64,000 nucleotides of DNA from assembly GCF_963921235.1 (NCBI RefSeq), contig NC_086097.1, positions 28,150,001 through 28,214,000 of the forward strand. The letters run 5' to 3'. Below the pieces are notes generated by a model. The model was not told where the DNA came from, searched no databases, and saw nothing but the letters and a program-made list of their open reading frames with translations. Source of the stretch: Mobula hypostoma. Taxonomy: Eukaryota. Numbering within the stretch: the stretch's first letter is position 1; each line of letters starts with the position of its first letter. Positions 9,251-62,081 of this stretch are shown piece after piece. The translations under genes and the position numbers were made by a program.

Positions 9251-9502
9251 TTGTGCTGAACTAATTAGAGTCATGGAGCACTACGTCACAGAAATAGGCC
9301 ATCTGGCCCATCCAGTCCCTGCCAAACTTATCTTGTCTGGTCCCGCACCTAGACCGTAGCCCTCCATGTAGTTATCTAAACTTCTCTTCAATGTTGCAAT
9401 TAAACTAGTAAATGCCTAACAGAACTAATCCATTCTCCATACCCAATATCCATATTCCTCCATTCTCTGCATATTCATGTGCCTATTTATGACCTTCTAA
9501 AA

Positions 9503-9845
9503 CAGTTGTCCCCAACCTCCAGGCCGCGGACCGATACATTGCCGCGAAGAGTGCAGCGGTAGTTGGACCATACCCAGCACATCTTTAAGAAAAAAAGCTG
9601 AAATAAACAAGCTAATTAATTAGGTGCCACCCGGCACGTAAATGTCGGCCCAGATCAGAGGCAACGCAATCGGCAATCGCCTCTGATCTGGGCCGACATT
9701 TACATGCCGGGTGGCACCTAATTAATTAGCTTGTTTATTTTGGCTTTTTTCTTAAAGATGTGCTGGGTTCGTTCTGGCTACTGCTGTACCACTGCATTCT
9801 CCACGGCAATGTATCGGTCCACCGCCCGGAGGTTGGGGACCACCG
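9503..9845. mobile_element. Palindromic hAT (Charlie-like) MITE
   Basis: Near-whole-length inverted repeat centred at ~9670. Termini CAGTTGTCCCCAAC / GTTGGGGACCACCG and perfect 8-bp TSD TTCTAAAA (9495-9502, 9846-9853). Confidence 0.9.
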
Positions 9846-10254
9846 TTCTAAAACATTTCTGTCATATTTGGTTCCACCACCACCCCTGGCAGTGTATTCC
9901 AGGCAGCTGTAAGAAAAAACTTGCCCAGTATATCTCCTTTCAGCTTGGTTCCTCTCACTTAAATGCATGCCCTCTAGTATTAGACAGGGCAGGAAGGTGA
10001 ATTCGTTGCTGTAAATTGTCCCTATTGTGCAAATGTCCAAGTCGACGGGTGTGTAAGAAAATAGATTGTAGAGTTATGCAAGAAATGGACTGATGGTATT
10101 ACCCTATCTATAGCCACAGGGACTTAAGATTCAAATTCAGGTTCAGGTTTATTTATTTATCACATGTACATTGAAGTATACAGTGAAATGACTATAGCTC
10201 AGCATGTAACACCATCAGTACTGATCGAAAAGCTACAGAACCTGGGCCTCTGAC

Positions 10255-11060
10255 GATCAACATTGGCACACCTCAGGGACGTGTGTTGAGCCCACTGCTC
10301 TACTCTCTCTATAGCCATGACTGTGTGGCTAGATACCGCTCTAATGGAGAGGAGAGGGCATACAGGAGCAAGATGTACCAGCTAGTTGAGTGGTGTAGCA
10401 GCAACAACGTTACCCTCAAGGTCAATAAGACGAAAGAGATGATTGTGTACTTCAGAAAAAGGAAGACGAGGGAACACGAACCAATCCTGATGGAGGGATC
10501 AGAAGTGGAGAGAGTGAGCAATTTCAAGTTCCTGGGTGTCAAAATCTCTGAGGATCTAACCTGGTCCCAACATATCGATGCAGCTATAAAGGAGGCAAGA
10601 CAGCATTTATATATTATTAGGAATTTGAGAACACTTGGTTTGTCACCTAAAACACTCAAAAACTTCTACTGCTGTACCATGGAGAGCATTCTGGTAGGCT
10701 ACATCACCATCTGGTATGGGAGGACCACTGCGCAGGATCAAAAGAAGCTACAGAAAGTTGTAAAATTAGTGAGCTCCATCATGGGTGCTAGCCTCTGTAG
10801 TATCCAAGATGTCTTCAAGGAGCAGTGCCTCAGAAAGATGGTGTCAATTATGAAGGACCCCATCACCCAGGACATGCCCTCTTCTCATTGGTACTGTCAG
10901 GGCAGAGGAACAGAAGCCTGAAGGCACACACTCAGCGATTCAGGACCAGCTTCTTCCCCTCTGCCATCTGATTCCTAAATGGACTTTGAACTCATGAACA
11001 CTACCTCACTTCTTAAAAATTATTTTTGTTTTTGCATTATTTTTAACTTAAGTACTTAGT
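10255..11060 (+). mobile_element. Rex/Babar-type LINE RT C-terminal fragment; 3' UTR resumes at ~13605-13712
   Basis: LSPLLYSLYSHDC, L.VNKTKEMIV.FR and VERVSNFKFLGV.ISEDLTW in ORF 10283-10921. Tail (GATTCT)n at ~13700. Confidence 0.85.
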
Positions 11061-11088
11061 GTATACACACACACACACACACAGAGAC

Positions 11089-11534
11089 AGTGATTGATAA
11101 GTTCGTGGCCTAAGGTAGAAGGAGATGAGTTATTGACTTCAAACTTTCTGCATTATCACTCAAAGAGTTGAACTGCACATGCATGTAATGAGAGCGTCTT
11201 GGAACTCCAAGTGGTCCATGGCAGGGGTGATTGATCAATTCGTGGCCTAAGGTAAAAGGAGATGAGTTATACAGCTCCCGTTACATACATGTGCAGTTTA
11301 ACTCTGGGTGAAAATCCAGAAAGTTTGAAGTTAATAACTCATCTCTTTCCAATTAAGGCCACAAACTTATCAATCACCCCTGCTGTGGACCACTTTCTGG
11401 AGGTCCAGGACGCTGACTTCTACAAAGAAGGGATCCGTATGCTCCACGACCGCTGGACTAAGTATGTAAATGTAGGAAAAATAAATGTGCTAGGTTTTCT
11501 AAAATTGACTCCTTCTCTCTTAGGCCATGAACTT
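11089..11534 (+). mobile_element. Mariner-derived non-autonomous element
   Basis: TIR GTGATTGATAAGTTCGTGGCCTAAGGTAGAAGGAG, repeated internally and inverted at 11340-11380 and 11509-11534. Carries the mariner C-terminal peptide FYKEGIRMLHDRWTKYVNV. Confidence 0.75.
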
Positions 11535-13550
11535 TACATACACCTTAGCCAAATACATTTAAACTCAGTTTTTCACAATTCCTGACATTTAATCCTAGAA
11601 AACATTCCCTGTCTTAGGTCAGTTAGGATCACTACTTTATTTTAAGAATGTGAAATGTCAGAATAATAGTAGAGAGAATGATTTAATTCAGCTTTTATTT
11701 CTTTCATCACTTTCCCAGTGGGTCAGAAGTTTACATACACTTTGTTAGTGTTTGGTAGCATTGCCTTTAAATTGTTTAACTTGGGTCAAACGTTTTGGGT
11801 AGCCTTTCACAAGCTTCTCACAGTAAGTTGCTGGAATTTTGTTCCATTCCTCCAGACAGAACTGGTGTAGCTGAGTCAGGTTTGTAGGCCTCCTTGCTTG
11901 CACATGCTTTTTCAGTTCTGCCCACAAACTTTCTAACGGATTGAGGTCAGGGCTTTGTGATGGCCACTCCAATACCTTGACCTTGTTGTCCTTAAGCAAT
12001 TTTGCCACAACTTTGGAGGTATGCTTGGGGTCATTGTCCATTTGGAAGACCCATTTGCGACCGAGCTTTAACTTCCTGACTGATGTCTTGAGATGTTGTT
12101 TCAATATATCCACGTAATTTCCTTCCTCATGATGCCATCTATTTTGTGAAGTGCACCAGTCCCTCCCGCAGCAAAGCAGCCCCCACAACATGATGCTGCC
12201 ACCCCCATGCTTCACGGTTGGGATGGTGTTCTTTGGCTTGCAAGCCTCACCCTTTTTCCTCTAAACATAACGATGGTCGTTATTGCAAAACAGTTCAATT
12301 TTTGTTTCATCAGACCAGAGGACATTTCTCCAAAAAGTAAGACCTTTGTCCCCATGTGCACTTGCAAACTGTAGCCTGGCTTTTTTCATGGTGGTTTTGG
12401 AGCAGTGGCTTCTTCCTTTCAGGTTATGTCGATATAGGACTCATTTTTACTGTGGATATAGATACTTGTCTACCTGTTTCCTCCAGCATCTTCACAAGGA
12501 CCTTTCCTGTTGTTCTGGGACTGATTTGCACTTTTCATGCCGAAGAACGTTCATCTCTAGGAGACAGAATGCGTCTCCTTCCTGAGTGGTATGATGGTCC
12601 CATGTTGTTTATACTTGCGTACTATTGTTCATACAGATGAATGTGGTACCTTCAGGCGTTTGGAAATTGCTCCCAAGGATGAACCAGACTTGACATCATA
12701 TTCTGACCTCAATCCGATAGAAAATCTGTGGGCAGAACTGAAAAAGCATGTGCGAGCAAGGAAGCCTACAAACCTGACTCAGCTACACCAGTTCTGTCTG
12801 GAGGATTGGAACAAAATTCCAGCGACTTACTGTGAGAAGCTTGTGAAAGGCTACCCAAAACGTTTGACCCAAGTTAAACAATTTAAAGGCAATGCTACCA
12901 AATACTAACAAAGTGTATGTAAACTTCTGACCCACTGGGAAAGTGATGAAAGAAATAAAAGCTGAAATAAATCATTCTCTCTACTATTATTCTGATATTT
13001 CACATTCTTAAAATAAAGTAGTGATCCTAACTGACCTAAGACAGGGAATGTTTTAATAGAACATAGAACATAGAATAGTACAGCACAGTACAGGCCCTTT
13101 GACCCACAATGTTGTGCCGACCCTCAAACCCTGCCTCCCATATAACCCCCTACCTTAAATTCCTCCATATGCCTGTCTAGTAGTCTCTTAAATTTCACTA
13201 GTGTATCCGCCTCCACCACTGACTCAGGCAGTGTATTCCACGCACCAACCATTCTCTAAGTTAAAAACCTTCCTCTAATATCCCCCTTGAACTTCCCACC
13301 CCTTACCTTAAAGCCATGTCCTCTTGTATTGAGCAGTGGTGCCCTGGGGAAGAGGCACTGGCTATCCACTCTATCTATTCCTCTTATTATCTTGTACACC
13401 TCTAAAATGTCTCCTCTCATCCTCCTTCTCTCCAAAGAGTAAAGCCCTAGGATTTCTAGGGTAGTTTTCTAGGATTAATTGTCAGGTATTGTGAAAAACT
13501 GAGTTTAAATGTATTTGGCTAAGGTGTATGTAAACTTCTGACTACAACTG
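11533..13550 (-). mobile_element. Sleeping Beauty-like Tc1 IR/DR transposon, rearranged with two right ends; transposase pseudogene ~12692-11745
   Basis: Peptides KSGSSLGAISKRLKVP, KHGGGSIMLWG and FQMDNDPKHTSK..WPSQSPDLNP.E (DD34E)..FKGNATK(Y/H). DRs CAGTGGGTCAGAAGTTTACATACAC and terminal ...GTATGTAAACTTCTGACTACAACTG at 13550. Frameshifts and stops present. Confidence 0.92.
13056..13452 (-). mobile_element. CR1 3' fragment inserted in the Tc1 right IR
   Basis: (TAGAACA)n tail and CR1 3' end. The IR sequence resumes at ~13465. Confidence 0.85.
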
Positions 13551-13552
13551 TG

Positions 13553-13554
<2 letters not shown>

Positions 13555-13600
<46 letters not shown>

Positions 13601-13605
13601 CACAC
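13555..13605. repeat. (CA)n microsatellite
   Basis: Direct observation. Confidence 0.95.
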
Positions 13606-15839
13606 ATTTATTTATTTTTCTATATTTACCTTGTATTGCATTGTACTACTGCTGCTAAGCTAACAAATTTCACGACATATGCTGTTGATATTAAACCTGA
13701 TTCTGATTCTGATATGTGTTGTTTACATTGACAACCAATATAATCTAGGGATGTGCTGGGAACGGTCAGCAAATGTCAGCATACATTCCAGTGGCAACAT
13801 GGCATGCTCACAATGCTTGGCAGAACATCAAAGAAGGCAACAAAACAACAGCAAAGCAAGCTCCTTTCCTCCCCCCGACCATATTTCCCACTAACACACA
13901 TATGCGGAGAGTGCTCCAGCTCCAGAAGAGGCCTCCAGGCCTCTCGTCTCTAGTCTCCAGGCTTTAACTTCTGAACTTGTGATTAACCTTTGGCCTTCAG
14001 GTTCAGTATCAACCCGCAGACTAGCCAATGACGGGGTCCCGAACTCCAGCCTCAACGTCTGGGCACAGTGACTGACGATCCCTGGAACCCACTTGTGCTC
14101 CCTGCCTGCATGATTATCTGATTCCGGCACATACCAACTTGGACAGCCCAACATTTTAAAATGTCTTTCATCACCCATCCACGTTGCAGGGCTTTGAGGG
14201 TGGAGCAGAGGCCCAATCTCTGGAGGTTCTTCGGCCCTGTGTCCATATCACTGGACATAGTGGAGGCCTAGTCTCTAAACATTCTTCATCACCTGTCCAT
14301 GTCCATAAGACTGTAAGACGTAGAAGCAGAATTAGGCCGTATGGCCCACTGAGTCTGCTCTGCCATCCAATGTGGCTGATTTATTATCCCTCTCAGCCCC
14401 ATTCTCCTGTCTTCTCCCCGTAACCTACTTTGAATGCAGAGTACAGAGCGAGGCCTGACCTTGAGCTCCTTCACATCCCTGCCCATAGACCCTAATCTGG
14501 CCCCTTAACTTCCCTTTGTGTTCCCAAAATCGTCCCTATGACTGCAGCTCAGCACCACCTTGACTGGAACAATGTTAGCTTGTTGTCGACTTGATTGGCT
14601 GAATGGCTTCATTCTGTGTCATAAGTATATGTTACTTTTAAGAGTGCATATGCGATAGGGAATAAATGACATCTTTACCAGCATGACCACACTCAGCGAC
14701 TTAATGATAATTATATGGATGTATGTTATTTTCCTGTAAAAACATGACAGACAATTAACAGGTTATTTTAAAACTGGTTAAAATAGCAGGCAGGCAGATT
14801 TAATCTTGGTGCTATTAATACACAGCTTAACTTCCAGAATTTAAAGATTAATATCAAACGTTTGCTTAGTTAACATCCATGCCTCTCTCTGTGCAACCCA
14901 AAAAGACATTGGTTCTTGAAATTCCTGTTTTCCCCCATTTGACTCCTAACCTGTATGGATAATTACTCTCACGTCAATACTGAACTGACTATATAATCTC
15001 TCTTTCAAGGACTCTACAACTCTTGTTCCTAGTATAATTTGTTTTTCAATTTGCGCAATCTGTCTCTTTTGCACATTGATTATTGTCAGTCTTTGTTCAT
15101 GTATACATTTTTCTAAGTTCTTTCAAATTTCCTTATTTTCAGTAGTCCTATGGTTCAATTTAATATCAGAGAATGTATACAGTGTACAACCTGAAAATCT
15201 TGCTCTTCACAGGCATCCATGAAATAGAAGAAAAAAACCCAAAGAATGAAAGACAGGAAAATGTTAGAACCCCAAAGTCCCCCTCCCCTTCCCAAGCTCA
15301 AGTAGCAGCAAAAGCATTGACCTCCCCCTCCCCCTCCCCCCCCACTTGCTCCAGCAAAAACATCACCCTCCCCCTCCCCTCCCCCCACTTGCTCCAGCAG
15401 AAGCAACAATACCCCCACCACCCACCATGTAAGCAATAACAAGCCCCCCAGAGACCATGGTCCAGAGTCCATTAAAAACTACTGTCCGTCCCAACACTTA
15501 CACATCTCAGACAGGCTCTCTCTCTCACCAGTGCGGGAGAGAGATATCACTCCTGCAATTGCAAGAGGGGAGACCATCAGCTCACTGTTTCAATGTTATA
15601 ATTTTCCTGGAATGCCTGCAAGAAAATAAATTTCATAGTAGGATTTGGTGACATATTTGTACTCTGATAATAATTTGCTTCAACTTTGATTTACATTGAC
15701 TTTGATCACTTCCATTCCCTTCTCCCTTTCCAGGCTTTTGCCTGGAAGCTGCATTAGTCTCTACCCAAGACACATGTAAGTGTCTGTTTGTCAGTATATA
15801 TTAGGGTTCTTGCAGGTATGTGTCTGAGAGCAATTGTAC

Positions 15840-22955: not shown

Positions 22956-24037
22956 TTACCTCCTGACAAGGCTCTGTCCAAACAATCTTTTCACTTTTTT
23001 TCCCAAGAGATTGGTTAATGGAAGGGCAATGTCAGCAAAATTCTTACAAAATTTACGGTAATATCCTACCATTCCTAAGAATGTTCTTAGAGTCTTTTCA
23101 CCAGTTGGAGTGGGTACCTCTAAAATTGCCTGAACTTTTGCCTGCACAGGAGCTAACTTACCTTGACCCACAACATAACCAAGGTAAGTCACAGTGGCAT
23201 GACCAAATTCACTTTTAGCTAAGTTAATAGTTAAGTTAGCTTTTGAAAGCCTTTCAAATTGTTTCTCCACCGCAGTAATATGTGCTTTCCAAGTATCATT
23301 TCCTGTAACTAAATCATCAATATAGGCATCGGTATCTTTTAACCCATGAATCACATAATTAATCATCCGCTGGAAAGTACCTGGTGCATTCTTCATCCCA
23401 AATGGAAGAACATTATATTCATATAACCCAGATGGGGTTACAAACGCAGAAATCTCTCTACCTCTATCCATCAACGGAACACACCAATACCCTTTTAACA
23501 AATCAATCTTTGTAAGGAGCTTTGCTTTTCCAACTTTGTCCACACAATCATTTACCCTAGGGATTGGATATGCATCAGCTTTTGTCACAGCATTCACTTT
23601 CCTGTAATCAGTACAAAACGGACTACTATTGTCTGGCTTAGGCACCATAACACACGGTGAACTCCAATTCGAATTAGAAGGTCTAATACAGTAATATTGT
23701 TCTCTAACATATATTTAATTCCTTGTTCAGCAAGTTCACATTTTTCCCTGTTCATCTGATACAGATGTTGTTTTATGGGTTTGGCATCTCCAACCTCTAC
23801 ATTATGTGAAGCTACTGTGGTTCTTTTAGGAACGTCTGGAAATAAATCCCTATACTTAAAAATTAGCTGCTTCATCTGCTCTGGCTTTAAATAAGCTAAT
23901 TTCTCATCAGTATTTTCCAGAATTGTTGAGTTTGGTAACCTGGCAGAAATAATGTTGGGTTTAAAATGAGTTTCAGATGAATCATCCATTAAGTTCCTAG
24001 TGGGATCAGGCTCATTATTATTGACCACAACAATCAT
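22956..24037 (-). pseudogene. Reverse transcriptase of the Gmr1-like element; RNase H deleted
   Basis: FCTDYRKVN, YIDD and FLGMVGYYRKFC. The sequence jumps into LTR sequence at ~22957. Confidence 0.9.
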
Positions 24038-24058
24038 AGTAGCAGACTGTTTCTCATA

Positions 24059-25057
24059 TTATGGTTGTATCATATTTATATGGCAAAGCTGTGTTGACTT
24101 TCTTCGATCTGGTCTTTTTATCACATAGTTCAAATCATTAATTTTAGGTATAATTTCATAAGGACCATGAAATTTAGCTTGTAATGGGTTCGTTTGCACT
24201 GGGAAAAGAACCAACACCTTATCTCCAGGTTTAAATGACCTCATTCTAGCTTCCTTATCATACCAAGTTTTCATTTTTACCTGAGCAGATTTAAAATTTT
24301 CCCTAGCTACGCTACAAGCTTTATGCAATCTTTCCTTAAATTTTAAAACATAATCCAGCAAATTAGTGTGTACCTCTTTATTCATCCACTGTTCTTTTAA
24401 CAAAGTCAAAGGTCCTCTAACTCTATGCTCAAACACAAGTTTAAAAGGACTAAATCCTAGAGATTCCTGCACTGATTCCTATACTGCAAATAGAAGTAAA
24501 TGAACTCCGTCATCCCAATCCTTTTCATTTTCCACACAATACATCCTAATCATGGTTTTGAGGGTAGAATGGAGGCTCCTTGTGATTCTGGATGGTATGC
24601 AGATGAGGTAATCCAATTTATAAACTATCTGCTGAAACAATCCAGACATAAAATTACTGCCTTGATCAGATTGTATTTCCTTAGGTAATCCAAAATAAGT
24701 AAAGAATTTTATGAGAGCCTTTGTCACAGTTTTGGCTGTTATATGCCTAAGAGGTATTGCCTCTGGAAACCTAGACGCTATGCACATGATGGTCAACAAA
24801 TATTGATGTCTAGTTTTAGTTTTAGGTAATGGGCCTACACAATCTACAGTAATTTTTGAAAACGGCTCACCAAATGCTGGAATAGGTTGCAGTGGGGCCA
24901 CTGGAGTAACTTGATTAGGTTTACCCACAATTTGACAAGTATGACACGTTCTGCAAAAAGTTGTCACATCTTTTCTAAAGCTAGGCCAGTAAAAATGTTT
25001 AAAAACCTTATTCACAGTTTTCTTCACACCTTGATGGCCACCCAAAGGCAAAGGCAT
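24059..25057 (-). pseudogene. Integrase of the Gmr1-like element
   Basis: HHCC remnant, DDE core and GPY module (FHGPYEI); frameshifted. Confidence 0.9.
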
Positions 25058-25900
25058 AGTTAAAATCTTATTCCGATAAACTTTAGGAACAACTACCTGG
25101 TGATTAAATTCCCATTCTTCACGCAGGAATTGTAGGTGATCTCCACTTCCTCATTAATACTCCCTTTTCAAAATAATATCCTACTGGCACTTCTGAATTT
25201 CACTACCTGGAAGAGCTTGTTCCTTTAATTTGATTATCTCAGGATCTCTACTCTGCTCTGCTCTCATCTCCTTCTGAGATTGAGACAAATCTTCATCAGA
25301 CTTAGCACAATAATCTTGATCAAATAATGTAGGTAAGAAAGTTTCTGACACTTCCTCAAAATTTGAATCCCGAGTTGAACAGTCATGGGTAACAACCTCA
25401 TCCTGCACATCAAATTTTTTAGCCATAGCTCGGGTTACAACACAGGAAGAATCCATCTTTGGTTCCTCAGAAATGGGCTTAATTGTCAAATGTCCTTCAG
25501 GAAAAACTTGTCCATCTGCTAAGTCATTCCCTAACAATAGAGAAACATCATTCACAGGTAAACTGGGTTGTAGTCCTACTTTCACAGGTCCTGTAACTAA
25601 CCCTGACCTTAAATTTACTCTATGCAAATATACTGGCATAAGGGGACTCTCAACACCTTGTATATAGTTTACCTCACCACTGTCAGACTCATCATTAAAC
25701 TTTAGAACACTGTCTAATGAAAGTGATTGAGAAACTCCAGTATCCCTAAGGATTTTTATTGGCACCAGAGTGGATCCCTCTTTCAAGGATATAAATCCTT
25801 CGGTTATAAAATGATCATATCCCCTCTTAACTTGATCAGTCTCTGACAAAGCTTCATTGGTATTTATTGAACCCCGTGGATTTACAGGTGTTTCAATATG

Positions 25901-27097
25901 TTACACACAAGCATCTGGGACGGCCTCTTTCTCCTTCTTCAATTGAAAACAGTTAACTATTACATGTCCAGGTTTCTTACAATAATTACAAATAGGACCA
26001 AAATGTCTTTCCTTCACATGTTTCCCTTCATCCTTACCTTTCTCACTAACTTCAGATTTAATTTCTGGTTTACCTTGGCTCTCTGTGCTATTTTTCATTT
26101 TAAAAGTTCTACCTGGAGAAAATTTACTCTTATGAACTAAAGCATACTCATCAGCTAATATAGCAGACTCCTGCAGTGTAGCAGTATCCCTCTCATTTAA
26201 GTATGTCCTTACTTCAACAGGAATGCTCCTTTTAAATTCCTCCAATAAAATCAACTCTTTTAATTTATTATACTCCTCATTCACATTTTTAGAGGAAACC
26301 CATTTCTCAAAACACACAGATTTATCGTAGGCAAATTCCACCTAAGATTTTTCCACGGATTTCTTCAAATTTCTGAATCTTTCTCTATAAGCTTCTGGAA
26401 CCAGTTCATATGCTTTCAGTATATGCTGCTTCACAATATCATAATCAAGTGCTTAGTCAGCACTTAAAGCTGTATAAACTTGTTGTGCTTTACCTCTAAT
26501 TATACTTTGTAACATCACTGGCCATTTATCTTTCGGCCACCCTGAATTCAAAGCAACAATTTCAAAATGTTGGAAACATTTGTCCACTTCTGTTTCATTA
26601 AATGGAGGAGCCAAAATAACTTCTCGACTAGCAACAAACTGTTTCCTAGAACCAGGGGACTGATTCTCGGACTTTAATTTCTCCATCTCTAGCTCAAACT
26701 CCCTGTTTTTATTTGCTTCTCTTTCTTCAAATTCCCTCTGTTTATTTGCAGCTTCTAACCAACATCGTTCCAAGTCAGCTTCCAATTGTTTCTGTTTTAA
26801 CTCAGCTTCTACTCTAAGCTTTTCTAACAATACCTGTTCCAGGTGTAACTGGATCGCTGCTTTACTTACAGGGAACCTATATAACTCCACTTCATTAAAA
26901 ACTCCCGCATTTATATAGTGTTCCATGATTCTCCTCTGAATTACTGGCTTTGTCGTAGCCTTCAAAATACCTTGAAGGTCCAACCTTCTAGCAATCTCAG
27001 ATACATCACCCTTTGTCACCTTCACTAATACTGTTGGGTCAGGCGATTCCATTAACTCGTCAATATTCATTGCTGCCGAATGCCACCCACAGACCAA
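25901..27097 (-). pseudogene. gag of the Gmr1-like element (SCAN-like capsid region + CCHC knuckle)
   Basis: Split ORFs 26453-27097 and 25901-26341. Motifs FE.VA...GWPKDKW...L...GKAQ, LKELILLEEFK, A..LADEY and CX2CX4HX4C. Confidence 0.85.
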
Positions 27098-32104: not shown

Positions 32105-35100
32105 CTAAATATGCCATCCTATCTTTTGTAAATAAGGGCGCCAAATATTCAAAAATGTTTCATATTTATCTCTTAAATTATAAGTAATTTTTTCGAGTGG
32201 AATAGAACTAGCCATTTCATTGTTCCGACGATTCGTACTTAAACATGAATCAGATTTCCAAATAACTGCTATAGCCTTCTTAGCTACTGCCAATGCAATT
32301 TTTATATATTTTTTCTGATATTTATTCAACTTAAGTTTCGGTTTTATCCCTTCAATATCACCTAATAGAAATAATACAGGGTTATGTGGAAGTTGAGTTC
32401 CAGTAATTTGTTCCAATAAGACTCTTAAATTTATCCAAAAAGGTTGAATTTTAGAACAAGACCAAGTAGAATGTAAGAAAGTACCAATTTCCTGATTACA
32501 CCGAAAGCATTGATCAGATAAATTTGAATTTAATCTACTTATTTTTTGTGGTGTAATATATAATTGGTGTAAAAAATGACATTGTACTAATCTAAGACGT
32601 TTATTGTATTTGTCATATTGTCAAGACACAGTCTTGACCAATTTGTTTCATCAATATTAATATTCAGATCCGTTTCCCATTTTTGTTTTGACGTGTGGAT
32701 TCCTTGTTTAATTGACTGTTTTTGAATCAAATTATACATACAAGAAATAAATTTTTAAATTTTTCCTTTTTGAATTAAAATTTCAATTTCATTGGGTTTT
32801 GGCAAAAACATTGTTTGACCCAGTTTGCCTTTTAAGTAAGCCCTTAATTGAAGGTAACAAAAGAAAGTGTTATTTGATATTTTATATTTATTCTTTAGTT
32901 GTTCAAATGACATCAATATACCTCATTCATAACAGTCTCCTATAGATCTAATCCCTTTTTGGTACCAATTATATAAAAGTTGATTATCCATTGTAAAAGG
33001 AATAAGTCTGTTTTGGAACAAAGGTCTCCTTGCTAATAAAGATTTCTTTATTTCAATATCAACGTTTATCTTATTCCATAGATCAATCAAATGTTTTAAT
33101 ATAGGAGATTCTTTCTTTTCCCGTATCCATTTGAATTCCCATTTATATATAAAATCTTCAGGTATATTTTCTCCTATCTTATCTAATTCTATTCTAATCC
33201 ATGCCAGTTTTCGATCATCAAAGAAAGATGCAATAAATCTAAATTGATTTGCTTTATAATAATTCTTAAAGTTTGGAAGTTGTAACCCTCCTAACTCAAA
33301 TTTACATGTCAATTTTTCCAATGATATTCTTGACATCTTACCTTTCCAAAGAAATTTTCTCACACATTTATTTAACTCTTGAAAAAATTTCTGTGGCAAT
33401 TGTATTGGTAATGTTTGAAACAAATACTGTAATCTAGGAAATATATTCATTTTTACAACATTGACTCGACCCACTAATGTTAATGGTAGTATCATCCGTT
33501 TGTCAAGATCTTGAATTTTTTCAATAGTGGTAAATAATTAAATTTATATAAATTCTTTACATCATTATCAAGTATACCTAAATACTTTATACCATTTACC
33601 GGCTATCTAAATTGGGTTGCTAATCGACATTGGCTATAGTCTCCTTTAGTAAGAGGTCAAATTTCACTTTTATCCCAATTTATTTTATACTCTGATACTT
33701 TCCCATATTCATCCAATCCAGAAGATAGTTTATGTAACGAATGCTGTGGGTTTGTTAAGTAAATCAAAACATCATCAGCAAAAACATTAATTTTATATTC
33801 CTCCTGATTAACTCTAAAACCCATAATATCTGGATCAATTCTAATTAGTTCTACTAATGGCTCTATTGCCAGTACAAATAAAGCAGGTGATAATGGACAA
33901 CCTTGTCTAGTTGACCTTTTTAACTGGAATGGTGTTGAAATTTGAGTATTTGTCACTACTTTAGCATTAGGGTTAGTATTTAAAGTTTTAATCCAGTTTA
34001 TAAAAGATATTCCTAACCCATATTTTTCTAATACTTTAAATAAAAAATCCCATTCCGATCTATCAAATGCTTTTTCTGCATCCAAGGCTACTACTATACT
34101 CATCTCCTCCCTTTTTTGTTCCAAATGAATTATACTGAGTAGCCGAATTAAACATTATCTGCCAATTGTCTATTTTTAATAAATCCTGTTTGATCCATAT
34201 GTATTAATTTTGGTAAATATTTAGATAATCTATTTGATAAAATTTTTGCTATTATTTTATATTGTATTATATTATTTTATATTATTTGCTATATTTAAGA
34301 GGGAGTTAGATATGGCCCTTGTGGCTAAAGGGATCGGGGGTATGGAGGGAAGGCAGGTACAGGGTTCTGAGTTGGATGTTCAGCCATGATCATACTGAAT
34401 GGGGGTGCAGGCTCGAAGGGCCGAATGGCCTACTCTTGACCTATTTTCTATGTTTCTATGTTTCTATTTTATAATCCGCGTTCAACAAAGAAATAGGCCT
34501 GTATGATGCTGGTTTTAAAGGATCTCTGTCTTTTTTTGGCAATACTATTACAATCGCTGTTGAAAAAGATTCTGGGAGTTTATGTATTTTTTCTGCTTGA
34601 CGTATTAACTCCATAAAGGGAGGAAATAATAAATCTTTAAACTTTTTATAAAATTCAGGTGGAAAACCATCTTCTCCTGGAGATTTATTACTTTGGAGTG
34701 ATCCTAAAGCTTCTTCAACCTCTTTTAATGTAAAAGGCATATCTAATCCCTTCTGTTCTTCCAAATTCAATTTTGGAAGAGTTACTTGTGATAAAAACCT
34801 TTCTATCTCATTAACATCATTTTGTGATTCTGATTGATATAATTCAGAACAGAAACTTTTGAAGGTTTCATTAACTTCTAAAGGTTTATAAGTAATTTTA
34901 TTTGCACTTGTTCTAATTGCATTTATCGTTTTGGAAGCTTGTTCTGTTTTCAATTGCCAAGCAAGAATTTTATGTGCTCTCTCACCTAACTCATAATACC
35001 TTTGCTTAGTTCTTATGATTGCTCTTTCCATTCTGTATGTCTGAAGCGTATTATATTGTAACTTCTTATTAACAAGTTGCCTTCATTTTTCTTCTGTCAT

Positions 35101-36093
35101 ATGTCTTTGAGATTCTTTTTCTAATTTTGTAATCTCTTTTTCCAATTGATCTAGTTCTGCCATATATTCTTTCTTAATTTTAGACGTATAACTTATTATC
35201 TGACCCCTCAAATATGCTTTCATCGCATCCCATAGTATAAATTTATCATCCACTGAATGAGAGATTGTATCCAAAAAAAAATTGGATCTGCTTTTTCATA
35301 AAATCACAAAAATCTTGACGTTTTAATAATGTTGAATTAAATCTCCATCTATAAGCCTCTTCTTCCTTATCAGTTATTATTATTGTCATTAATAGAGGAG
35401 AATGATCTGACAATATTCTTGCTATATATTCCATATTTTTCACTCTGTGTTGAATATGCATTGATAATAGGAAAAGATCTATCCTTGAATAAGATCTATT
35501 AGAATAGAACGAATAGTCTCTTTCTTTAGGATTAATTCTTCTCCATATATCAATCAAATTTAAATCTTTCATCAATGATAAAGTTAGTTTTACTACCTTC
35601 GATTTTGTGACAGCCTTATAGTTGATCTATCTAAGACTGGGTCTAGGCAAAAATTAAAATCTCCTCCTATTAATATTTTTTCATGTGCATCAGCCAAATT
35701 CAAAAAAGCTTCTTGTATGAGTTTTGCATCATTTTCATTTGGTGCATAAATATTCATGAAAGTCCATAATTCAGAAAAAAGTTGACAGTGTATAATCATG
35801 TATCTCCCCGCAGAATCGGTTATTACATTTTGTATTCTAATTGGTAATGTTTTATTGATCAAAATTGCTACTCCCCTCGCTTTTGAATTAAATGAAGCTG
35901 CAACAGCACTACCCACCCAATCTCTCTTTAATTTCTGATGTTCTGTTTCTGTTAAATGTGTTTCCTGTAAGAAGGCTAAATCTACCTTCATTTTCTTAAT
36001 ATGTGTTAAGATTCTTTTTCTTTTCACCGGCCCATTAAGCCCATTAACATTAAAACTCAAAAAATTCAATAAATTAGTCATTATTCTTAACAA
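32105..36093 (-). pseudogene. L1 ORF2 (APE endonuclease-RT-Cys domain), frameshifted
   Basis: NVNGLN, LQETH, GGDFN, SRID, SDHSP; SPGEDGF, LDAEKAFD, RQGCPLSP, FADD. Several frameshifts and a CR1 insertion. Confidence 0.92.
34288..34466 (+). mobile_element. Short young CR1 3' end inserted in L1 ORF2
   Basis: Near-identical to 21608-21788, with (TTCTATGT)n tail. Confidence 0.9.
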
Positions 36094-36739
36094 AGTTACT
36101 CCAATCTAAAACATTACTTAGCTTCTCAACTCTCATAGTTCCTTGGAGAATCTCTTTGAACTTCACTATGTTGCTATGTGTTACCCTCCCAATCATCCAG
36201 GCAAAAAGAAAGAAATAAAAGATAGATATGATACAAAAAGAGAAATAACAAAATACCCGCCCCCACTAATGTTGTGAATGAAAAGATACACAACACTACC
36301 CCCCTCTATTTTGCGGGTTGTGACTATTGCCACGCTTGCACACATGAATAATGTAGTGATTGGTCGGTATTTCTTCCAGCTCCCCGTAACAAAAAAATTG
36401 TGTGTGTGTGTATATATATATGTATATATAAATAAAATTAATGTCACTATTCCCAGCTAATATTCCTCAAATTTTAACCTTTCTTCCCCTACCTCATATA
36501 ATTAATAATATATTTATATATTCATCCGCCTTTAAAAATCCAGCAGGTGTATTCCTTGACCCAGTCTTCATCTTCAATCCATCTCGCTCCCCTGGGTTTG
36601 TTCTTGTATCTGGTGAATATTCAAAGAATCTCGCACAAACTCCTCCGCTTTCCGGTAATCGTCAAATCTTTTTTCTCCGCCAGCCAAAGAAATCTTCAAG
36701 GTTGCAGGATAACGCAATTATAAATTGATAACCGTGATC

Positions 36740-37720
36740 CTACAGGACTTTTTTCACTGGATTAAATTTCTTCCTTCTCTTCAAAAGCTCATAACTTATG
36801 TCAGGGTAGAAAAAAATTTTCTTCCCTTCTATCATCAGTGGCCCTTTTCTATTCTTGGCAGCTTGGGCAGCCGCCTGTAGAATCCTTTCTTTGTCTTGAA
36901 ATCTTAAGAATTTTATTAAAATTGATCGTATATATTGGTCATCTTGTGGTTTTGGTCTTAGAGCTCTATGTGCCCGCTCAATTTCAATTGATCGGTCTTC
37001 CTCTTTCATTTGCAAAGTTTCTGGGATCCATCTTTGAAAAAATTCTATTGGATTGTCTCCCTCTATACCTTCTTTAAGACCAACAATCTTAATATTATTT
37101 CGTCTACTAAAATTTTCCAACACGTCCACTTTCTCTAACAGTCGATTTCTTTCCGTTTTCCAGACAAGCATATCATTTTCTGTTTTTTCCACTCTATCAT
37201 TAATATGCTCTGCTGTTCTTTCCAACTTTTGAAGTTTCTTATCCATTTTGTCCTGTCTTTTCATAGCTTTATCATAGCACATCTTCATGTCTTTAATCTC
37301 TGTTCTTAATTTTCTTAGTTCAGCCGTTACTTGCAATAAAGCCTCTCTTATGTCTCCATCGCATCCTTTACTTCCAGTCTCTTCCAGTTCTTCCTCCTCT
37401 TCTTCATCTGTATTCTCTGCGGAATCCAATTCTGACTCTGAGTCACTTTCACTTGCAGTGGCCGTCGGTTCTTGTAGTTTGAGTTGTATCGATTTGTGCA
37501 TGCCAACATCTTTGCGCATGCGCAATTCCGGCATCTTCTTCCCAGGGACTGCTACCGCTGCCTTTGCTCCCTGTTCTTCTACGCCAGAGATAAAATGCGT
37601 CTCCTCCGAAGGAGATCCAACCTGAATCCAAGGCTCCATTGCTGCAGTAGGCCCTTTTTTCTTCCCATTTCGCGGCGACTTCGCAACAACAGATTTCTTC
37701 TGTTGCGGTTTATAAAGCAT
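36740..37720 (-). CDS. L1 ORF1p (coiled coil + RRM + part of CTD), probably C-terminally truncated
   Basis: 326-aa ORF with RRNNIKIVGLKEG, IERAHR, FLRFQDKERIL and IFFYPDIS. Confidence 0.85.
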   Translation of the reverse strand: MLYKPQQKKSVVAKSPRNGKKKGPTAAMEPWIQVGSPSEETHFISGVEEQGAKAAVAVPGKKMPELRMRKDVGMHKSIQLKLQEPTATASESDSESELDSAENTDEEEEEELEETGSKGCDGDIREALLQVTAELRKLRTEIKDMKMCYDKAMKRQDKMDKKLQKLERTAEHINDRVEKTENDMLVWKTERNRLLEKVDVLENFSRRNNIKIVGLKEGIEGDNPIEFFQRWIPETLQMKEEDRSIEIERAHRALRPKPQDDQYIRSILIKFLRFQDKERILQAAAQAAKNRKGPLMIEGKKIFFYPDISYELLKRRKKFNPVKKVL

Positions 37721-37864
37721 ATCATAAAATAGTCTTGAGAAGCTTATAAGTAATTTTCGGAAAGTATTTATTAACTTTGCTTTGTTTAAATGGTACTTTG
37801 CTGGTTTTTTACAGGAGAGCTGGATTTACATGTCTCAATCCCATGTCATCATGTGACGTCCCCC

Positions 37865-39727: not shown

Positions 39728-40880
39728 GTGGTGGGATCCCGTTGGAGGTGGCAGAAGTTACAGAGAATTATATGTTGGACCCGGAGGCTGGTGGGGTGGT
39801 AGGTGAGGACCAGGGGAACCCTATTCCTAGTGGGGTGGCGGGAGGATGGGGTGAGAGCAGATGAGTGTGAAATGGGAGAGATGCGTTTGAGAGCAGAGTT
39901 GATGGTGGAGGAAGGGAATCCCCTTTCTTTAAAAAAAGGAGGACATCTCCTTCATCCTGGAATGAAAAGCCTCATCCTGAGAGCAGATGCGACGGAGACG
40001 GAGAAATTGCGAGAAGGGGATGGCATTTTTGCAAGAGACAGGGTGAGAAGAGGAATAGTCCAGATAGCTGTGAGAGTTCGTAGGCTTATAATAGACATCA
40101 GTAGATAAGCTGTCTCCAGAGATAGAGACAGAAAGATCAAGAAAGGGGAGGGAGGTGTCGGAAATGGACCAGGTAAATTTGAGGGCAGGGTGAAAGTTGG
40201 AGGCGAAGTTAATAAAGTCAACGAGCTCAGCATGTGTGCAGGAAGCAGCGCCAATGCAGTCATCGATGTAGCGAAGGAAAAGTGGGGTACAGATACCAGT
40301 ATAGGCACGGAACATGGACTGTTCCACAAAGCCAACAAAAAGGCAGGCATAGCTGGGACCCGTACGGGTGCCCATGGCTACACCTTTAGTTTGGAGGAAT
40401 TGGGAGGAGCCAAAGGAGAAATTATTAAGAGTAAGGACTAATTCCGCTAGACGGAGCAGAGTGGTGGTAGAGGGGAACTGTTTAGGTCTGGAATCCAAAA
40501 AGAAGCGGAGAGCTTTAAGACCTTCCTGGTGGGGGATGGAAGTATATAGGGACTGGACATCCATGGCGAAAATAAAGTGGTGGGAGCCAGGGAACTTAAA
40601 ATCAGCGAAAAAATTCAGAGCGTGAGAAGTGTCACGAACATAGGTAGGAAGGGATTGAACAATGGGGGATAAAACAGTGTTGAGGTATGCAGAAATGAGT
40701 TTGGTGGGGCAGGAGCAAGCTGAGACAATGGGTCTACCTGCACAGGCAGGTTTGTGGATCTCGGGTAGGAGGTAGAAACGGGAAGTGCAGGGTGTGGGAA
40801 CTATAAGGTTGGTAGCAGTGGATGGGAGATCCCCAGAGCTGATAAAGTTGGTGATGGTGTGGGATACAAATGGTCCGGTG
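39728..40880 (-). mobile_element. Penelope-like element RT fragment
   Basis: FYLLPEIHKP..GRPIVS, MDVQSLYTSIPH, GVAMG..GPSYA, LRYIDD, LPFLD and YYKPT in ORF 39929-41191. Confidence 0.92.
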
Positions 40881-40904
40881 CTCCTTACTGGGATGTTGCC
40901 TGGA

Positions 40905-41316
40905 TCGACCTTTTTTCCTTGGAGCGATGGAGGATGAGAGGTGACCTGATAGAGGTGTACAAGATGATGAGAGGCATTGATCGTGTGGGTAGTCAGAGGC
41001 TTTTTCCCAGGGCTGAGATGGCTAGCACAAGAGGGCACAGTTTTAAGGTGCTTGGAAGCAGGTACAGAGGAGATGTCAGGGGTAAGTTTTTTACGCAGAG
41101 AGTGGTGAGTGCATGGAATGGGCTGCCGGCGACGGAGGTGGATATGATAGGGTCTTTTAAGAGACTCCTGGATAGATACATGGAGCTTCAAAAAATAGAG
41201 GGCTATGGATAACCCTAGGTAATTTCTAAGGTAAGGACATGTTCAGCACAGCTTTGTGGGCCGAAGGGCCTGTATTGTGCTGTAGGTTTTCTGTGTTTCT
41301 ATGTTCTATGTTTCTA
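40905..41316 (+). mobile_element. CR1 3' fragment (second subfamily)
   Basis: LFSLERWRMRGDLIEVYKMM...FFTQRVVSAWNGLP and (TTCTATG)n tail. Confidence 0.88.
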
Positions 41317-41949
41317 GAACTATCATATAAAATTAAGGATGTAATGCTAAGGCTTTATAAGGCACTGATGAGGCCTCACTTGGAGTATTGTGAGCATTTT
41401 TGTGCCCCTCATCTAAGGATGTGCTGACATTGAAGAGGATTCAAAGGAAGTTCACGAAAATGATTCTGGGATCAAAAGACTTGTCAGATGGGGAGTGTTT
41501 GGTGGCTCTGGGCCTCTACTCATGGAAATGCAGAAGAATGAGGGGCGACCTCATTGAAACCTATCGAATGTTCAAAGACCTCAATAGAGTGGACGTGGAG
41601 AGGATGTTTTCTCTGGTGGAGGTGTCTTAGATCAGGGAACATAGCCTCAGAATAAAGGACTGTCCTTTTAGAACAGAGATGAGGAAGAATTTCTTTAGCC
41701 AGAGAGTGGTGAATCTGCAGAATTCATTGCAGCTGTAGAGGCCAAGTCATTGGGTATATTTAAGGCAGAGGTTGATAGACTCTTGATTGGTCAGGGCATG
41801 AAGGGATACGGGAAGAAGGCAGGAGATTGAGGCTGAGAGGAAAAATGGATCAGCCATGATGCGTCAAATGGCCTAATTCTACTTCTATATCTTATGGTCT
41901 TATAAACACCACTTTGCCCACTCCTTGGGGGAGTAGCAACAGTACTGAA

Positions 41950-42473
41950 TTTCCTCCATTTGTAGACAATTTCTCTGTCTGTGGACTGATGAACACTCAG
42001 GTCTTTAGAAAATGCTTTTGTAGCCTTTTCCTGCTTCTTGCATCTCTACAGTCCTTCTTCTAAGGTCCTCTGAAAGTTATTTTGATTGAGACATGGTGCA
42101 CATAAACAGATCTTTCTTGGGAAGCACAGACTTTTGTCAGTAACCCGACTTTGTGTGTCCTTTTTAAAGGGCAGGACACCTCTCAACCCACACCTCCAAT
42201 TTCATTGCACTGATTGGAACACCTGATACCAAATAGCTTTTGTAGAAGGCATTGCCCCAGAGGATCACATACTTTATTGCACCTCGCTGTGATTGTTTAA
42301 ATGGTGTACTCAGTAATGATGAGAAGAAGTACAATCATTTGTGTATTATTAGCTTAAGCAGGTTGCGTTTGTCTATTATTGTGACTTAGATGAAAATCAG
42401 ACCTGATTTTATGAGTAGTTAATGCAGAAAACCAGGTAATTGCAAAGAGTTCACAAACTTTTTCTTGCAACTG
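41950..42473 (-). mobile_element. Tc1-like transposon 5' end fragment
   Basis: Minus-strand terminus TA-CAGTTGCAAGAAAAAGTTTGTGAAC, followed by a decayed N-terminal transposase (G..YK.IS..L.V..ST). Confidence 0.7.
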
Positions 42474-55540: not shown

Positions 55541-56114
55541 GTACAAACCTTTGCAATACGTGTGCCATCTCTTAATGAAGTCCTGATGAACGGTCTCAGC
55601 CTGAAACATCAATTGTCCATTTCCCTCCATAGATGCTGCCTGACCTGCTGAGTTCCTCCAGCATTTTGTGTGCGTTGCTCAAAATTTCCAGCATCGGCAG
55701 AATCTCTTGTGTCTCTGTCTCTTAATGTTTCTTACTTAGAAATGACACCATTGTATCTGTCAATCATCTTTTGACTAAAGAAAAGGAAATTTATCACTGG
55801 TAAGGTGAATATAATAGAGTGCAACAGAGACTTTCAACCCGAAATGTCGACAGTTCCTTTCCTCCCACAGATGTTTCTTGATCCACTGAGTTCCTCCAGC
55901 AAGTTGTTTTAATAACAGAGTACACTGTGTACTCAACATCGTCTGTGCTGTCTTCAAGCCACATTTTGTCTAAATGCACGTTTAACTTTAATAACACACA
56001 AAGGTACTGGAGAAATTCAGGAGGTCAGGCAACATCTTTGAAGGGAAACGGACAGTGGACATTTCTGGTCGAGACCCTTCTTCCGGACTGGAGAGGACAG
56101 AAGCCAGATTAAGG

Positions 56115-56720
56115 AGGTAGAGGGAGGGGAAGGAATACAAGCTGGCAGGTGATAGGTGAGACCAGGTGAGGGGGGGAGAGGAAGTACAGCTGGCAGGTGA
56201 TAGGTGAGACCAGGTGATGGGGAAGGTGGGGGAGGGGAAGGAGAACAGGCTGATAGGTGATGGGTGAAACCAGGTGAGGGGAAAGGTGGGGGAAGGGAAG
56301 GAGTACAGGCTGATAGGTGATGGGTGAGACCAGGTGTTGGAGAAGGTGGGGGAGGGGAAGGAGTACAGGCTGATAGGTGATAGGTGAGACCAGGTGATGG
56401 GGAAGGTGGGGGAAGGGAAGGAGTACAGGCTGATAGGTGATGGGTGAAACCAGGTGAGGGGAAAGGTGGGGGAGGGGAAGGAGTACAGGCTGATAGGTGA
56501 TAGGTGAGACCAGGTGATGGGGAAGGTGGGGGAAGGGAAGGAGTACAGGCTGATAGGTGATGGGTGAAAACAAGTGAGGGGAAAGGTGGGGGAAGGGAAG
56601 GAGTACAGGCTGATAGGTGATAGGTGAGACCAGGTGATGGGGAAGGTGGGGGAAGGGAAGGAGTACAGGCTGATAGGTGATGGGTGAAACCAGGTGAGGG
56701 GGAAGGCGGGGTGGAGTACA
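56115..56720. repeat. ~60-bp purine-rich minisatellite expanded inside a Penelope 3' UTR-like segment
   Basis: Unit ~GGAAGGTGGGGGAAGGGAAGGAGTACAGGCTGATAGGTGATAGGTGAGACCAGGTGATGG, about 10 copies, two alternating variants. Confidence 0.92.
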
Positions 56721-57359
56721 AACCGAAAGGTGAAAGCAGATGACAAATAAGGAGATGGGGGAGAGTTAGAAGTACGAGCTGATAGGTGATGGGTGGGGGG
56801 GAGAGGGATGAAATGGAAAATGGGAGGTGACAGGTGCAAAACGGTAAAGGGCTGATGACGAAGTAATCTGATAGGAGAGGAGAGTGGACCGTGGGAGAAA
56901 GAGGAGGAGGAGGGGAACCAGAGGGAGGAGATGAGCAGATGAGAAGGGGTAAACACTTCTTCCCCCTTGCTTGTGTTTTTTCACCCTTCTTTTTTTTTCT
57001 TTTTTTAAAGTCAGGGAGTTACGTTGCAGCTTTATAAAACGCTAGTTAGGCTGCAACTGCAGTATGGCGTACAGCTCTGGTCGCCCCATTGAAAGAAGGG
57101 TGTCGAGGGTTTGGAAGGGTGCAGAAGTGGTTTACCAGGATGCACCTGGTCTAAAGGGCATGTGCTATAATGAGAGGATGGACAAACTTTGTTTGTTTTC
57201 TCTGGAGCGGTGGAACTGAGGGGAGATCTAATAGAGGTTTATAAGATTGTGAGAGGCATACAAAGACAGACTGTATCTTTTCCCCAGGGTTGAAATGTCT
57301 CATACCAGAGAGCATGCAATTAAGGTGAGATGGGGTATTTTCAAAGTAATGCAAAAAGA

Positions 57360-59542: not shown

Positions 59543-62081
59543 TCTCCTCCTGCTCCCCCACCTTTCCCGTCACCTGGTCTCACCCATCGCCTGCCAGCGT
59601 GTACCCCTTTCCCTCCCCCTACCTTCTTATTCTGGCTTCTGCCCTCTCCAGTCCTGATCTCTGTCTCAGCCTGAAATGGTTAGCACAGTGCTATTACAAC
59701 TTGGAATGTTCCGGACTTCGGAGTTCAATTACAGCACCGTTCTGTAAGGAGTGTCTGTTCCCATGGAACGTGTGGGTCTTCAGCGGGCGCTCCAGTTTCT
59801 TCCCACAGTCCAAAGACATACCGGGTAGGTTAACTGGTCAGTGTAAATTGGCCCGTGATTAGGTCGGGGTTGTGGGACTGCTGTGATGGTGTTGCTCGAA
59901 AGGCCAGACGGGCCTACTCCACACTGTATTGCTAAATACATAAAATAAATAACTAATATTTACAAGGATGTTGCAGGACTTGAGGACCTGAGTTAAAGGG
60001 AAAGGTTGGATAGGTTAGTTATTCTCAGGAGCATAGGAGAAAGAGAGAGATTTCATAGAGCTATAGAATTATGAGGGTTACGGATAGGGAAAATACAAGC
60101 AGGCTTTTTCCACTGGGGTTGCGTGAGATTAGAACAAGAGGTCATATGTTAAGGGTGAAAGGTGAAATATTTAAGGGGAACCTCTTCACTCATAGGCTGG
60201 TGTGACTGTGGAACGAGCTGCCCATGGAAGTGGTAGATTAGGTTTCGATCTCAACATTTAAGAGTAATTTGATTAAGTATGGGGATGGGAAGGGTATTTA
60301 GGGCTGTGGTCCGGGTGCAGATTGATGGGACTGAGCAGAATAACAGTTTGGCATGGACTAGATGGGTTGGAGACCCTGTTTCTATGCTGTATTGTTCTGT
60401 GACTCTATTTCAGCATCAATTGAATGTGAATCATGAAAAAGTTCCAATACTTCTCTCCCATCAAGGTTGCTGAAAACCTTCTGATGGCTGTAGTCGAGAA
60501 GGTTGTCTGTTAAGTCAAAATCTGATACTGATAGCAAAGAATTCGTTGAGATATGGGTATGTTTAAAACTCACAGACAGTGAAAGGCAGGGGATTAGTTA
60601 AGATTGTGGCATTATATTTGAAGCAGATAGATAAATCGGACCAGGACAATAACACCAAGTCTGCCAAGAAGGCGCTAATGGGATATGATATGTGAAACAA
60701 GTAAATTAGCGGCAGAGAGAGAGAGAGAGAGACAGGGAAAGAACAAAAGAGAGGTTAAACACTTGGCTGGACCTTTCCACTGAAGCAAGTGACATTTGTA
60801 ATGTTGCAAGCCAGTTAATATGACAAGGAGAAGCCTTGTGTCTGTTAGAGAAAAAGCTAGCATTAGGAATAGCCCAATTGACAGAATTGCAGACAGTGAG
60901 GAAGACTGTCAAGGGATACAGCAAGATTTAGATCTGTTTGAAAGTTGGGTGGAGATTTGGAAAATGGAGTTTAATCCAGACAAATTTGAGATGGTGCACT
61001 TGGGGGTTAAATGCACGAAGAAATCACCCATTACTGTCTGGTTTGGTGCTGCATCCTCTCACAATGTACAAGAACTACAGCGAACTATCAGGTCAGCAGA
61101 GAAGATCATTGGCTGCAGTCTATCATCACTGCAGGACATGTGTGTCCAGGACGAAGAAATGAGCAGGAAAAGTCAAAGTGGCACTACCCACCTGAGGTTC
61201 AACCAGTCTTAGAAGACCCAAAATACATCATCTTACTCTTGTATGGATTAACTTCCATCTGCCACTGCGCCGTCCAGTTTTCCAACTGATCTAAGTGCAT
61301 CTGTATCCTTAGACACAGCAGATGAGCTTCTTTATCCAGAGGGTGGTGAATTCATTGTCACAGACAGTGTGGAGGTCAAGGCATTGGGTATATTGATAGA
61401 TTCTTGATTAGTAAGGGTGTCAAAGATTACGGGAAGAAGGCAGGAGAAAGGGGTTAAAAGGAACATAAATCAGTCATGATTGAATAGCGAAGCAGATTTG
61501 AAGGGCCAAATAGCCTAATTCTGTTCCTATGACTTGGAATCTTATGGTTATCCATCTTTGCTATCTACAACTCGAGCAATTAAAGTTCAAAGTAAATTTA
61601 TAATCAAAGTACATATATACTAGCTCGAGATTCATTGTTTTTGCAGGCATTTGCAGTGGAACAAGGGAATACAATACAATCAACGTCAAAGTCCACACAA
61701 GCAGAGACTAACAAATAACCAATGTGCAAAAGCAGATAAACTGCAAATTTTAAAATAATAAATAAATAAACAAACCAACAACTGGATAGATAGATACTGA
61801 AGATAGATATATAAATTAATAAACAAAAAGTTCTGAGAACATGAATTGTAGAGTCCTTGAAAGTGAGTCCATTATTTGTGGAGTCAGTTCAGAGTTGTGG
61901 TGAGTGAAGTTATCCACACCAGCTCAGGAGCCTGACGGTTGTAAGATAGTAACTGTTCCTGAAACTGGTTTACCAATCTTTATGTCATCAGCAAACTTAC
62001 TTAATCCCATTCTGATCATTCATATATTTGACAAACAACAAAGGTGCCAGACTGATCCCTGTGATCCACCGCTGGATACAA

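Follow-up and report, generated by a model that had tools for sequence, protein, structure and literature searches.

A Sleeping Beauty-clade Tc1 element with two right ends in a devil ray: a very probable case of horizontal transfer

The closest described relatives of the element reported here are Sleeping Beauty (SB) and its natural kin among the Tc1 transposons, for which the available part of the survey by Jia et al. 2022 (PMC9777934) names 107 ray-finned species and one mollusc as hosts. That part, which covers assemblies up to 2022, lists no chondrichthyan for the SB or SB-like branches and one for the ZB-like branch, and gives a coding identity of 61% between SB and SB-like elements. According to the accessible portions of PMC5224488, PMC8151067, and PMC7827188, a dispensable half-DR enhancer resides in the left end of SB, and constructs with a doubled left end gain two- to threefold in efficiency. 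For cartilaginous fishes, the accessible portion of PMC12361510 gives Tc1/mariner DNA contents of 2.3–3.3% for rays and skates versus 0.14% for sharks. The word "horizontal" is absent from the main text of that paper, as is "Tc1" from the main text of a 2026 mobulid genome preprint, and the chondrichthyan terms looked for are absent from the main texts of PMC7070016 and PMC12400950. A search of the openly available literature did not turn up any ray known to carry an SB-clade element.

Here, we describe such an element from a 64-kb stretch of DNA (64,000 nucleotides, hereafter the window). The features on which the following description draws are:

10187–11065 (+): left half of an older LINE, in whose tail microsatellite the composite element is inserted; the right half lies at 13600–13713
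11090–11535 (no strand assigned): mariner-like foldback of nested inverted repeats, fused to the left outer DR and replacing the SB terminus
11529–11744 (−): right IR/DR of arm 1 with an intact inner DR and an outer DR lacking its terminal 12 nt; 207 of 216 nt equal to the intact relative L001
11745–12692 (−): coding part of arm 1, an SB-clade transposase pseudogene that begins with the third base of codon 19 and extends through the stop codon
12693–12702 (+): junction filler of 10 nt
12703–13054 (+): inner part of arm 2, comprising transposase codons 273–340, the inner DR, and the larger part of another right IR; identical to arm 1 at 342 of 352 nt
13055–13463 (−): later insertion, a 3′ fragment of a high-copy LINE, with a 5-nt duplication (13050–13054 and 13464–13468)
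13464–13550 (+): outer right IR of arm 2 with outer DR and terminus, followed by TG and then TA(CA)n
63668–63866 (+): exon of DGLUCY (D-glutamate cyclase; PF07286, E 2.1e-11), the host marker, outside the element

The host is a devil ray (Mobula) and, hence, an elasmobranch. After 36,134 repeated bases had been masked, 566 frames were compared with Pfam, namely all 552 unmasked ones of 30 aa or more and 14 chosen ones; the D-glutamate cyclase exon was found in one of them. It equals Mobula hypostoma at 66/66 residues, M. birostris at 65/66, the stingrays Hemitrygon and Hypanus at 60/66 (6 differences, 9%), the sawfish Pristis at 53/66 (13 differences, 20%), and Rhinoraja at 50/66. Eight sharks share 41–51 of the 66 residues (15–25 differences, 23–38%), and lungfish, axolotl, and platypus 44–48. 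The original prediction had let its reading of horizontal transfer depend on an elasmobranch host to be recognized from DGLUCY; the exon points to exactly such a host, not to a teleost.

The window carries a variety of other repeats. A near-perfect palindromic element of 360 nt at 9495–9853 is MITE-like, its 72-nt inner arms being 96% complementary. At 22956–27097 (−) lies the remnant of a Gypsy-like LTR element, whose gag-like, RT, and integrase frames are broken by stops, and at 32105–37825 (−) a near full-length LINE, which we take to be L1/Tx1-like, with a 361-aa ORF1 and an interrupted endonuclease–RT frame. The 437-aa RT frame at 39929–41242 (−), presumably Penelope-like from its appearance, overlaps another LINE fragment. 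The 5′ fragment of a second, distant Tc1 family at 41914–42094 (−) encodes an N-terminal HTH with 46–55% identity to Tc1 proteins. Two long tandem arrays (55988–57018 and 61904–62554) bear open frames on several strands.

The transposase gene of arm 1 is disrupted by six frame-breaking indels and three to four in-frame stops, and codons 1–19 are missing. The catalytic DD34E triad is kept (D153, D244, and E279, in register with L001), and the KKPLL interdomain linker is present as RKKPLLQN, readable in a shifted frame. The minus-strand frame 11745–12260 translates to NYVDILKQHLKTSVRK...GNATKH. The peptide quoted in the original prediction is present in this frame apart from its ending NATKY, which belongs to the second, plus-strand arm (frame 12561–12908). 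The sole match among 177,635 distinct PDB sequences is the catalytic domain of SB100X (5cr4, E 1.2e-86). Within the final 125 codons, 124 residues can be read, of which 108 equal the transposase of the cloning vector pT2/Gene-Trap (P0271), and the best natural match reaches 90%; the earlier estimate by eye of roughly 90% identity to SB over this stretch was, hence, a good one. Equally sound were the proposed resemblance to the SB right IR/DR, borne out by the 207 of 216 bases shared with the right end of L001, and the coordinates, with homology at 11529–12692 and the terminus at 13550.

Relatives were sought in a scan of metagenome contigs, which returned 54 loci, three of them close (L001, L003, and L026). 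L001 is an intact, TA-flanked element of 1,639 nt, whose protein (P0263) falls into a 90% cluster with Oncorhynchus and Hucho proteins among its named members. Judged by eye, named salmonid rows in the available part of the PMC9777934 supplement are closely similar to the first 400 bases of its coding sequence. Arm 1 and L001 are identical at 889 of 945 coding and at 207 of 216 non-coding nt, with a dS of 0.092 ± 0.022 and a dN of 0.054 over 311 codons; CpG decay accounts for 12 of the 65 mismatches. When read through with X at the breaks, the copy shares 275 of 307 residues with L001 and 272 of 307 with the pT2/Gene-Trap transposase, compared with 50–63% identity to the four more distant Tc1 proteins among the 14 aligned. 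This is well above the level of a generic Tc1 element, the case in which the original prediction would have lost its basis. The coding identity of 889/945 nt also passes the >80% threshold given for the SB branch in the accessible text of PMC9777934. In protein searches, salmonid-cluster SB proteins rank first by identity among the matches listed, and a tree of 30 rows places the ray copy in a 100/99 clade of 15, in which all named members are either teleost elements or the SB vector. On these sequence comparisons, membership of the element in the SB clade of Tc1 is confirmed.

Outside animals, the transposase has no match in plasmids, and none of nine candidate stretches in viral contigs could be confirmed. 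In prokaryote genomes, two distant Tc1 loci were found (L055 and L056; 61–62% identity with the SB-type query). Each lies in a different bacterial assembly, on a very short contig, and is probably animal DNA carried along. No protein named for a cartilaginous fish occurs among the transposase matches or cluster members listed (at least 120 in each of two sets); as most of these rows are nameless, this has no bearing on the distribution of the clade.

On the plus strand, the element reads as reverse L001 from 2739 to 1557, ten bases, and forward L001 from 2318 to 2751, the latter interrupted at 13055–13463 by the inserted LINE, which presumably belongs to the CR1/L2 group. This order creates a 352-nt pair of inverted repeats with 97% identity (11599–11950 and 12703–13054), coding sequence included, and a 75-nt pair further out (11529–11603 and 13464–13538). 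Both ends are right IR/DRs. Their inner DRs are intact in both arms, and the outer DR is complete at 13550 and 12 nt short at 11529. Apart from DR motifs common to both ends, no left IR/DR, half-DR enhancer, or 5′ UTR was found in the window by comparison with L001 1113–1500. The locus is a non-autonomous derivative: it bears a right IR/DR at both ends, lacks the left IR/DR and codons 1–19, and was later joined by a LINE and a mariner-like foldback. The original prediction of an SB-like Tc1 element with IR/DR is correct in kind; what it missed is that this is a derivative form in which both ends are right ends. The 64-kb window contains no further SB-clade copy.

The composite sits in a TA/(CA)n tract between the two halves of one older LINE tail, both of which are collinear with the same two other copies of that LINE; its left half shows an RVT_1 match at E 1.2e-5, under Pfam's cut-off. 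The TA duplication is intact at neither end: the right terminus is followed by TG and TA(CA)n, and the left terminus is replaced by the foldback. The foldback has a weak match to the C-terminus of the SETMAR transposase (E 0.038), and both of its ends are fused to their neighbors at short common words, not at TA. We infer that the element at this locus is now immobile. The arms differ at 10 of 352 sites, five private to each, and share 21 differences from L001 within these 352 nt. At least two of the shared letters are absent from the family majority in sequencing contigs (see below), which requires either conversion from arm to arm or a subfamily.

The ends of L001 and L003 are ordinary left and right ends with 69–70% identity. 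Two other Tc1 elements of the scan, L002 (115–344 and 1540–1769) and L005 (1–317 and 1534–1850), carry long terminal repeats that are 99–100% identical. Compared with L001 and L003, these show that end homogenization is recurrent in the Tc1 group.

The junction between the arms preserves a trace of the lost left part. Positions 12689–12699 are identical, in forward orientation, to the stretch of 5′ UTR that directly precedes the start codon (L001 1492–1502), with an overlap of 4 nt with arm 1; a 10-nt version of the same stretch also occurs at L001 1415. This match shows a junction apparently templated from the 5′ UTR, with 76 of 5000 random fillers matching equally well. Restoring the unit gives 1,195 + 10 + 434 = 1,639 nt, which is the length of the two intact relatives, L001 and L003, and could reflect chance, an in-register replacement, or size selection.

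Horizontal transfer between rays and bony fishes is very probable from these data. A dS of 0.092 and a non-coding end with 207 of 216 equal nt lie far under the divergence of the host exon, which makes vertical descent from the common ancestor of rays and teleosts virtually impossible and transfer very likely; the yardstick here is residue differences in the exon, not host dS, and teleost DGLUCY is absent among the at least 120 exon matches listed. The transfer proposed in the original prediction is, thus, well supported, given that the exon has already changed by 13/66 residues to the sawfish and by 15–25/66 to the eight sharks. Furthermore, the element tree conflicts with the host tree, as the ray copy falls inside a clade with teleost elements as named members. 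Its position within this clade is an open polytomy, and the tree gives no direction. Fish-to-ray would be the simpler reading, since the SB clade is widespread in ray-finned fishes. Several C-terminal residues of the ray copy follow a sister teleost subclade and not the salmonid one, and a 10-nt motif of the copy recurs in one row, Heterotis, of the portion of the PMC9777934 supplement text that was compared—with a similar state, by eye, in Pangasianodon. Both are weak hints of a non-salmonid sister and suggest that the donor was probably not a salmonid.

Two explanations would dispense with a transfer. Inheritance from the ancestor of cartilaginous and bony fishes could be imagined if a slow elasmobranch clock had preserved the element, and the shark mutation rate is indeed very low at 7e-10 per base per generation (PMC10587355, as far as its text was accessible). 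However, the host exon provides a control from the same lineage: although under selection, it differs by six residues already in stingrays and by more in sawfish and sharks, whereas the unselected element shows a dS of 0.09 and a 96% identical non-coding end. A slow clock can, hence, not rescue vertical descent, which we consider extremely improbable. On the teleost side, we know of no slow clock either. Contamination of the assembly by salmonid DNA or an SB vector would explain why the copy is so similar to proteins of the salmonid cluster and to the transposase of the vector; there is next to no chance of it, as the copy is broken and nested with host repeats on both sides and inside, bears the natural and not the vector residues at 243 and 253–255, and shares its 21 differences from L001 between both arms. 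The family is also deep in four sequencing runs with four organism labels from four studies.

These runs (X1, X5, X9, and X11 of 24 listed; one each for organisms A–D) allow for a view beyond the single locus, with which their contigs were compared. None of the contigs listed spans the locus. Joints that skip 11008–13692 were considered as empty orthologous sites and rejected, as they fit other copies of the flanking LINE. The LINE inserted at 13055–13463 has a depth in the millions in X1 and X5, and the depth of the foldback at 11090–11535 is high as well. The median summed depth of the element core is 64,287 in X1 and 129,368 in X5, whereas a single unique contig from the flank, one per run, has a depth of 15.3 and 46.6, respectively; the resulting ratios of roughly 4,200 and 2,800 are to be read as orders of magnitude only, as summed contig depth does not equal copy number. 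In X9 and X11, the core is about six times rarer relative to the neighboring LINE. Contigs bearing the junction occur in all four runs—63 in X1, 51 in X5, and three each in X9 and X11—and the junction reaches 0.93, 0.67, 0.04, and 0.08 of the core depth in X1, X5, X9, and X11, respectively. Relative to one unique flank contig, junction depth is ~3,900-fold in X1 and ~1,900-fold in X5. At 12700, inside the filler, the 63 and 51 contigs of X1 and X5 carry a T, a letter not obtained when either arm of a normal element is extended without gaps. Almost all junction depth in these two runs bears this letter, which is absent from the studied copy, and the contigs, hence, stem from other loci. As junction and body depth are similar in two runs of the host or its close kin, the two-right-end form has probably spread by transposition; it appears to predominate in organisms A and B and to be in the minority in C and D.

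Among the 40 of 245 variant places listed for the four runs, the majority letter equals L001 at 23 of the 24 that fall in arm 1, which places the ray family closer to the fish element than the studied copy is. The family differs from L001 by at most about 43 of 1,161 columns, and the copy from the family majority at 24 or more of 1,161 sites. Because of conversion and an uncertain clock, an age drawn from differences between the arms or to the majority would be unreliable.

With regard to the rearrangement, the transfer might be right and the two-right-end structure nonetheless a local one-off, with ordinary left/right elements making up most genomic copies. The similarity of the arms (342/352), their two or more common letters off the family majority, and the lack of a second complete copy in the 64-kb window would fit such a view. 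We find it quite unlikely, considering that the junction contigs of X1 and X5, at core-like depth, bear the 12700 letter of other loci and that junction contigs recur in X9 and X11 under other organism labels. The two-right-end form might also have arisen in a fish and have been transferred together with a helper, which would make it no innovation of rays; SB TIRs of 44–415 bp, the 3′ one partly overlapping the ORF, are described in the accessible part of PMC9777934 and point to right-end duplications in fish SB. This origin appears rather unlikely to us: the elements in that part are described with ORFs of at least 300 aa, whereas the ray form has lost codons 1–19, L001 and L003 bear ordinary ends of 69–70% identity, and the minor share of the junction in X9 and X11 fits amplification within rays. 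Re-insertion of an autointegration product is hardly credible. SB does yield inversion products in this manner, but according to the available text of PMC3952818, these retain the two ends of the parent element, with one end tip linked to a TA in the interior, whereas the ray locus has no left end, carries the right end twice, and shows no end tip at its junction.

The reading we prefer, transfer followed by rearrangement and mobilization in trans, has as a whole a probability of about 0.8 in our estimate. Horizontal transfer, for which a ray-finned fish or a shared vector is the simplest source, would have brought an autonomous SB-clade Tc1 transposon into an ancestor of the devil rays. In the ray lineage, one copy would then have exchanged its left 444 nt—left IR/DR, 5′ UTR, and codons 1–19—for its right 434 nt in inverted orientation and a patch of 10 nt for which the 5′ UTR served as template. 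The exchange may have come about through a template switch in the course of repair or, starting from a head-to-head pair, through two microhomology deletions; the sequence does not discriminate between the two. The product would have possessed four transposase-binding DRs and unit length, but neither a promoter nor an intact ORF. Cut-and-paste mobilization in trans through the four DRs would have raised it to thousands of copies, a level derived from summed contig depth. The studied copy would have landed in the TA/(CA)n tract of a LINE tail and decayed, one IR receiving a later LINE insertion and the other losing its tip to a mariner-like element. It is possible, albeit somewhat doubtful, that this derivative, without a left-end enhancer and trimmed to exactly the length of its parent, has in the lineage of devil rays reached several times the abundance of that autonomous parent.

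Tc1 transfer among fishes is already known to be frequent and is expected, and the studied locus itself is dead. What appears to be new is an SB-clade element in a host class not listed for SB and an apparently dominant, non-autonomous form with two right ends. The clade behind a major gene-therapy vector would thereby extend to the cartilaginous fishes, across one of the deepest splits of jawed vertebrates, and might explain in concrete terms part of the Tc1/mariner DNA by which rays and skates surpass sharks according to the accessible part of PMC12361510. The two-right-end form further represents a natural substrate for testing the asymmetry of the SB ends. SB donors with right ends on both sides work poorly, a point for which we found no published passage. 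If the derivative did out-multiply its parent, it would be a natural, genome-scale counter-example to the laboratory picture of a left-end enhancer whose doubling raises activity, and unit length or end symmetry might be what the SB transpososome selects in the germ line.

Among known systems, Sleeping Beauty (SB100X, PDB 5cr4; vector AFR53956) and the natural salmonid-type elements share with the ray element the DD34E triad, a 96% identical right IR/DR, and the unit of 1,639 nt. In contrast to these, the ray element resides in a ray, its ORF is broken and without codons 1–19, the left IR/DR and half-DR enhancer are absent, and the right end is duplicated together with 68 codons. By identity (94% coding) and tree, it belongs to the SB branch of PMC9777934, whose members have likewise spread by horizontal transfer. 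As far as the accessible text goes, some TIRs of this branch, up to 415 bp long, overlap the ORF—which makes a right-end duplication less novel—whereas no promoter-less family with two right ends is described there. The Tc1 transfers between teleosts and lampreys (Kuraku et al. 2012, PMC3516227, available in part) similarly combine high identity across an ancient vertebrate split with neutral decay in the host; however, they concern another Tc1 group, which was not amplified from the cartilaginous fishes tested there, and have a host–parasite route, whereas no such route is known for the ray. Zebrafish Tdr1 and other non-autonomous IR/DR derivatives (Wang et al. 2017, PMC5224488, in its accessible portion) keep long internal sequence and do not shrink to MITEs, and the ray derivative resembles them in retaining the full unit length. 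Those derivatives, however, are described in that portion as internal deletions, whereas in the ray derivative the left end is replaced by the right.
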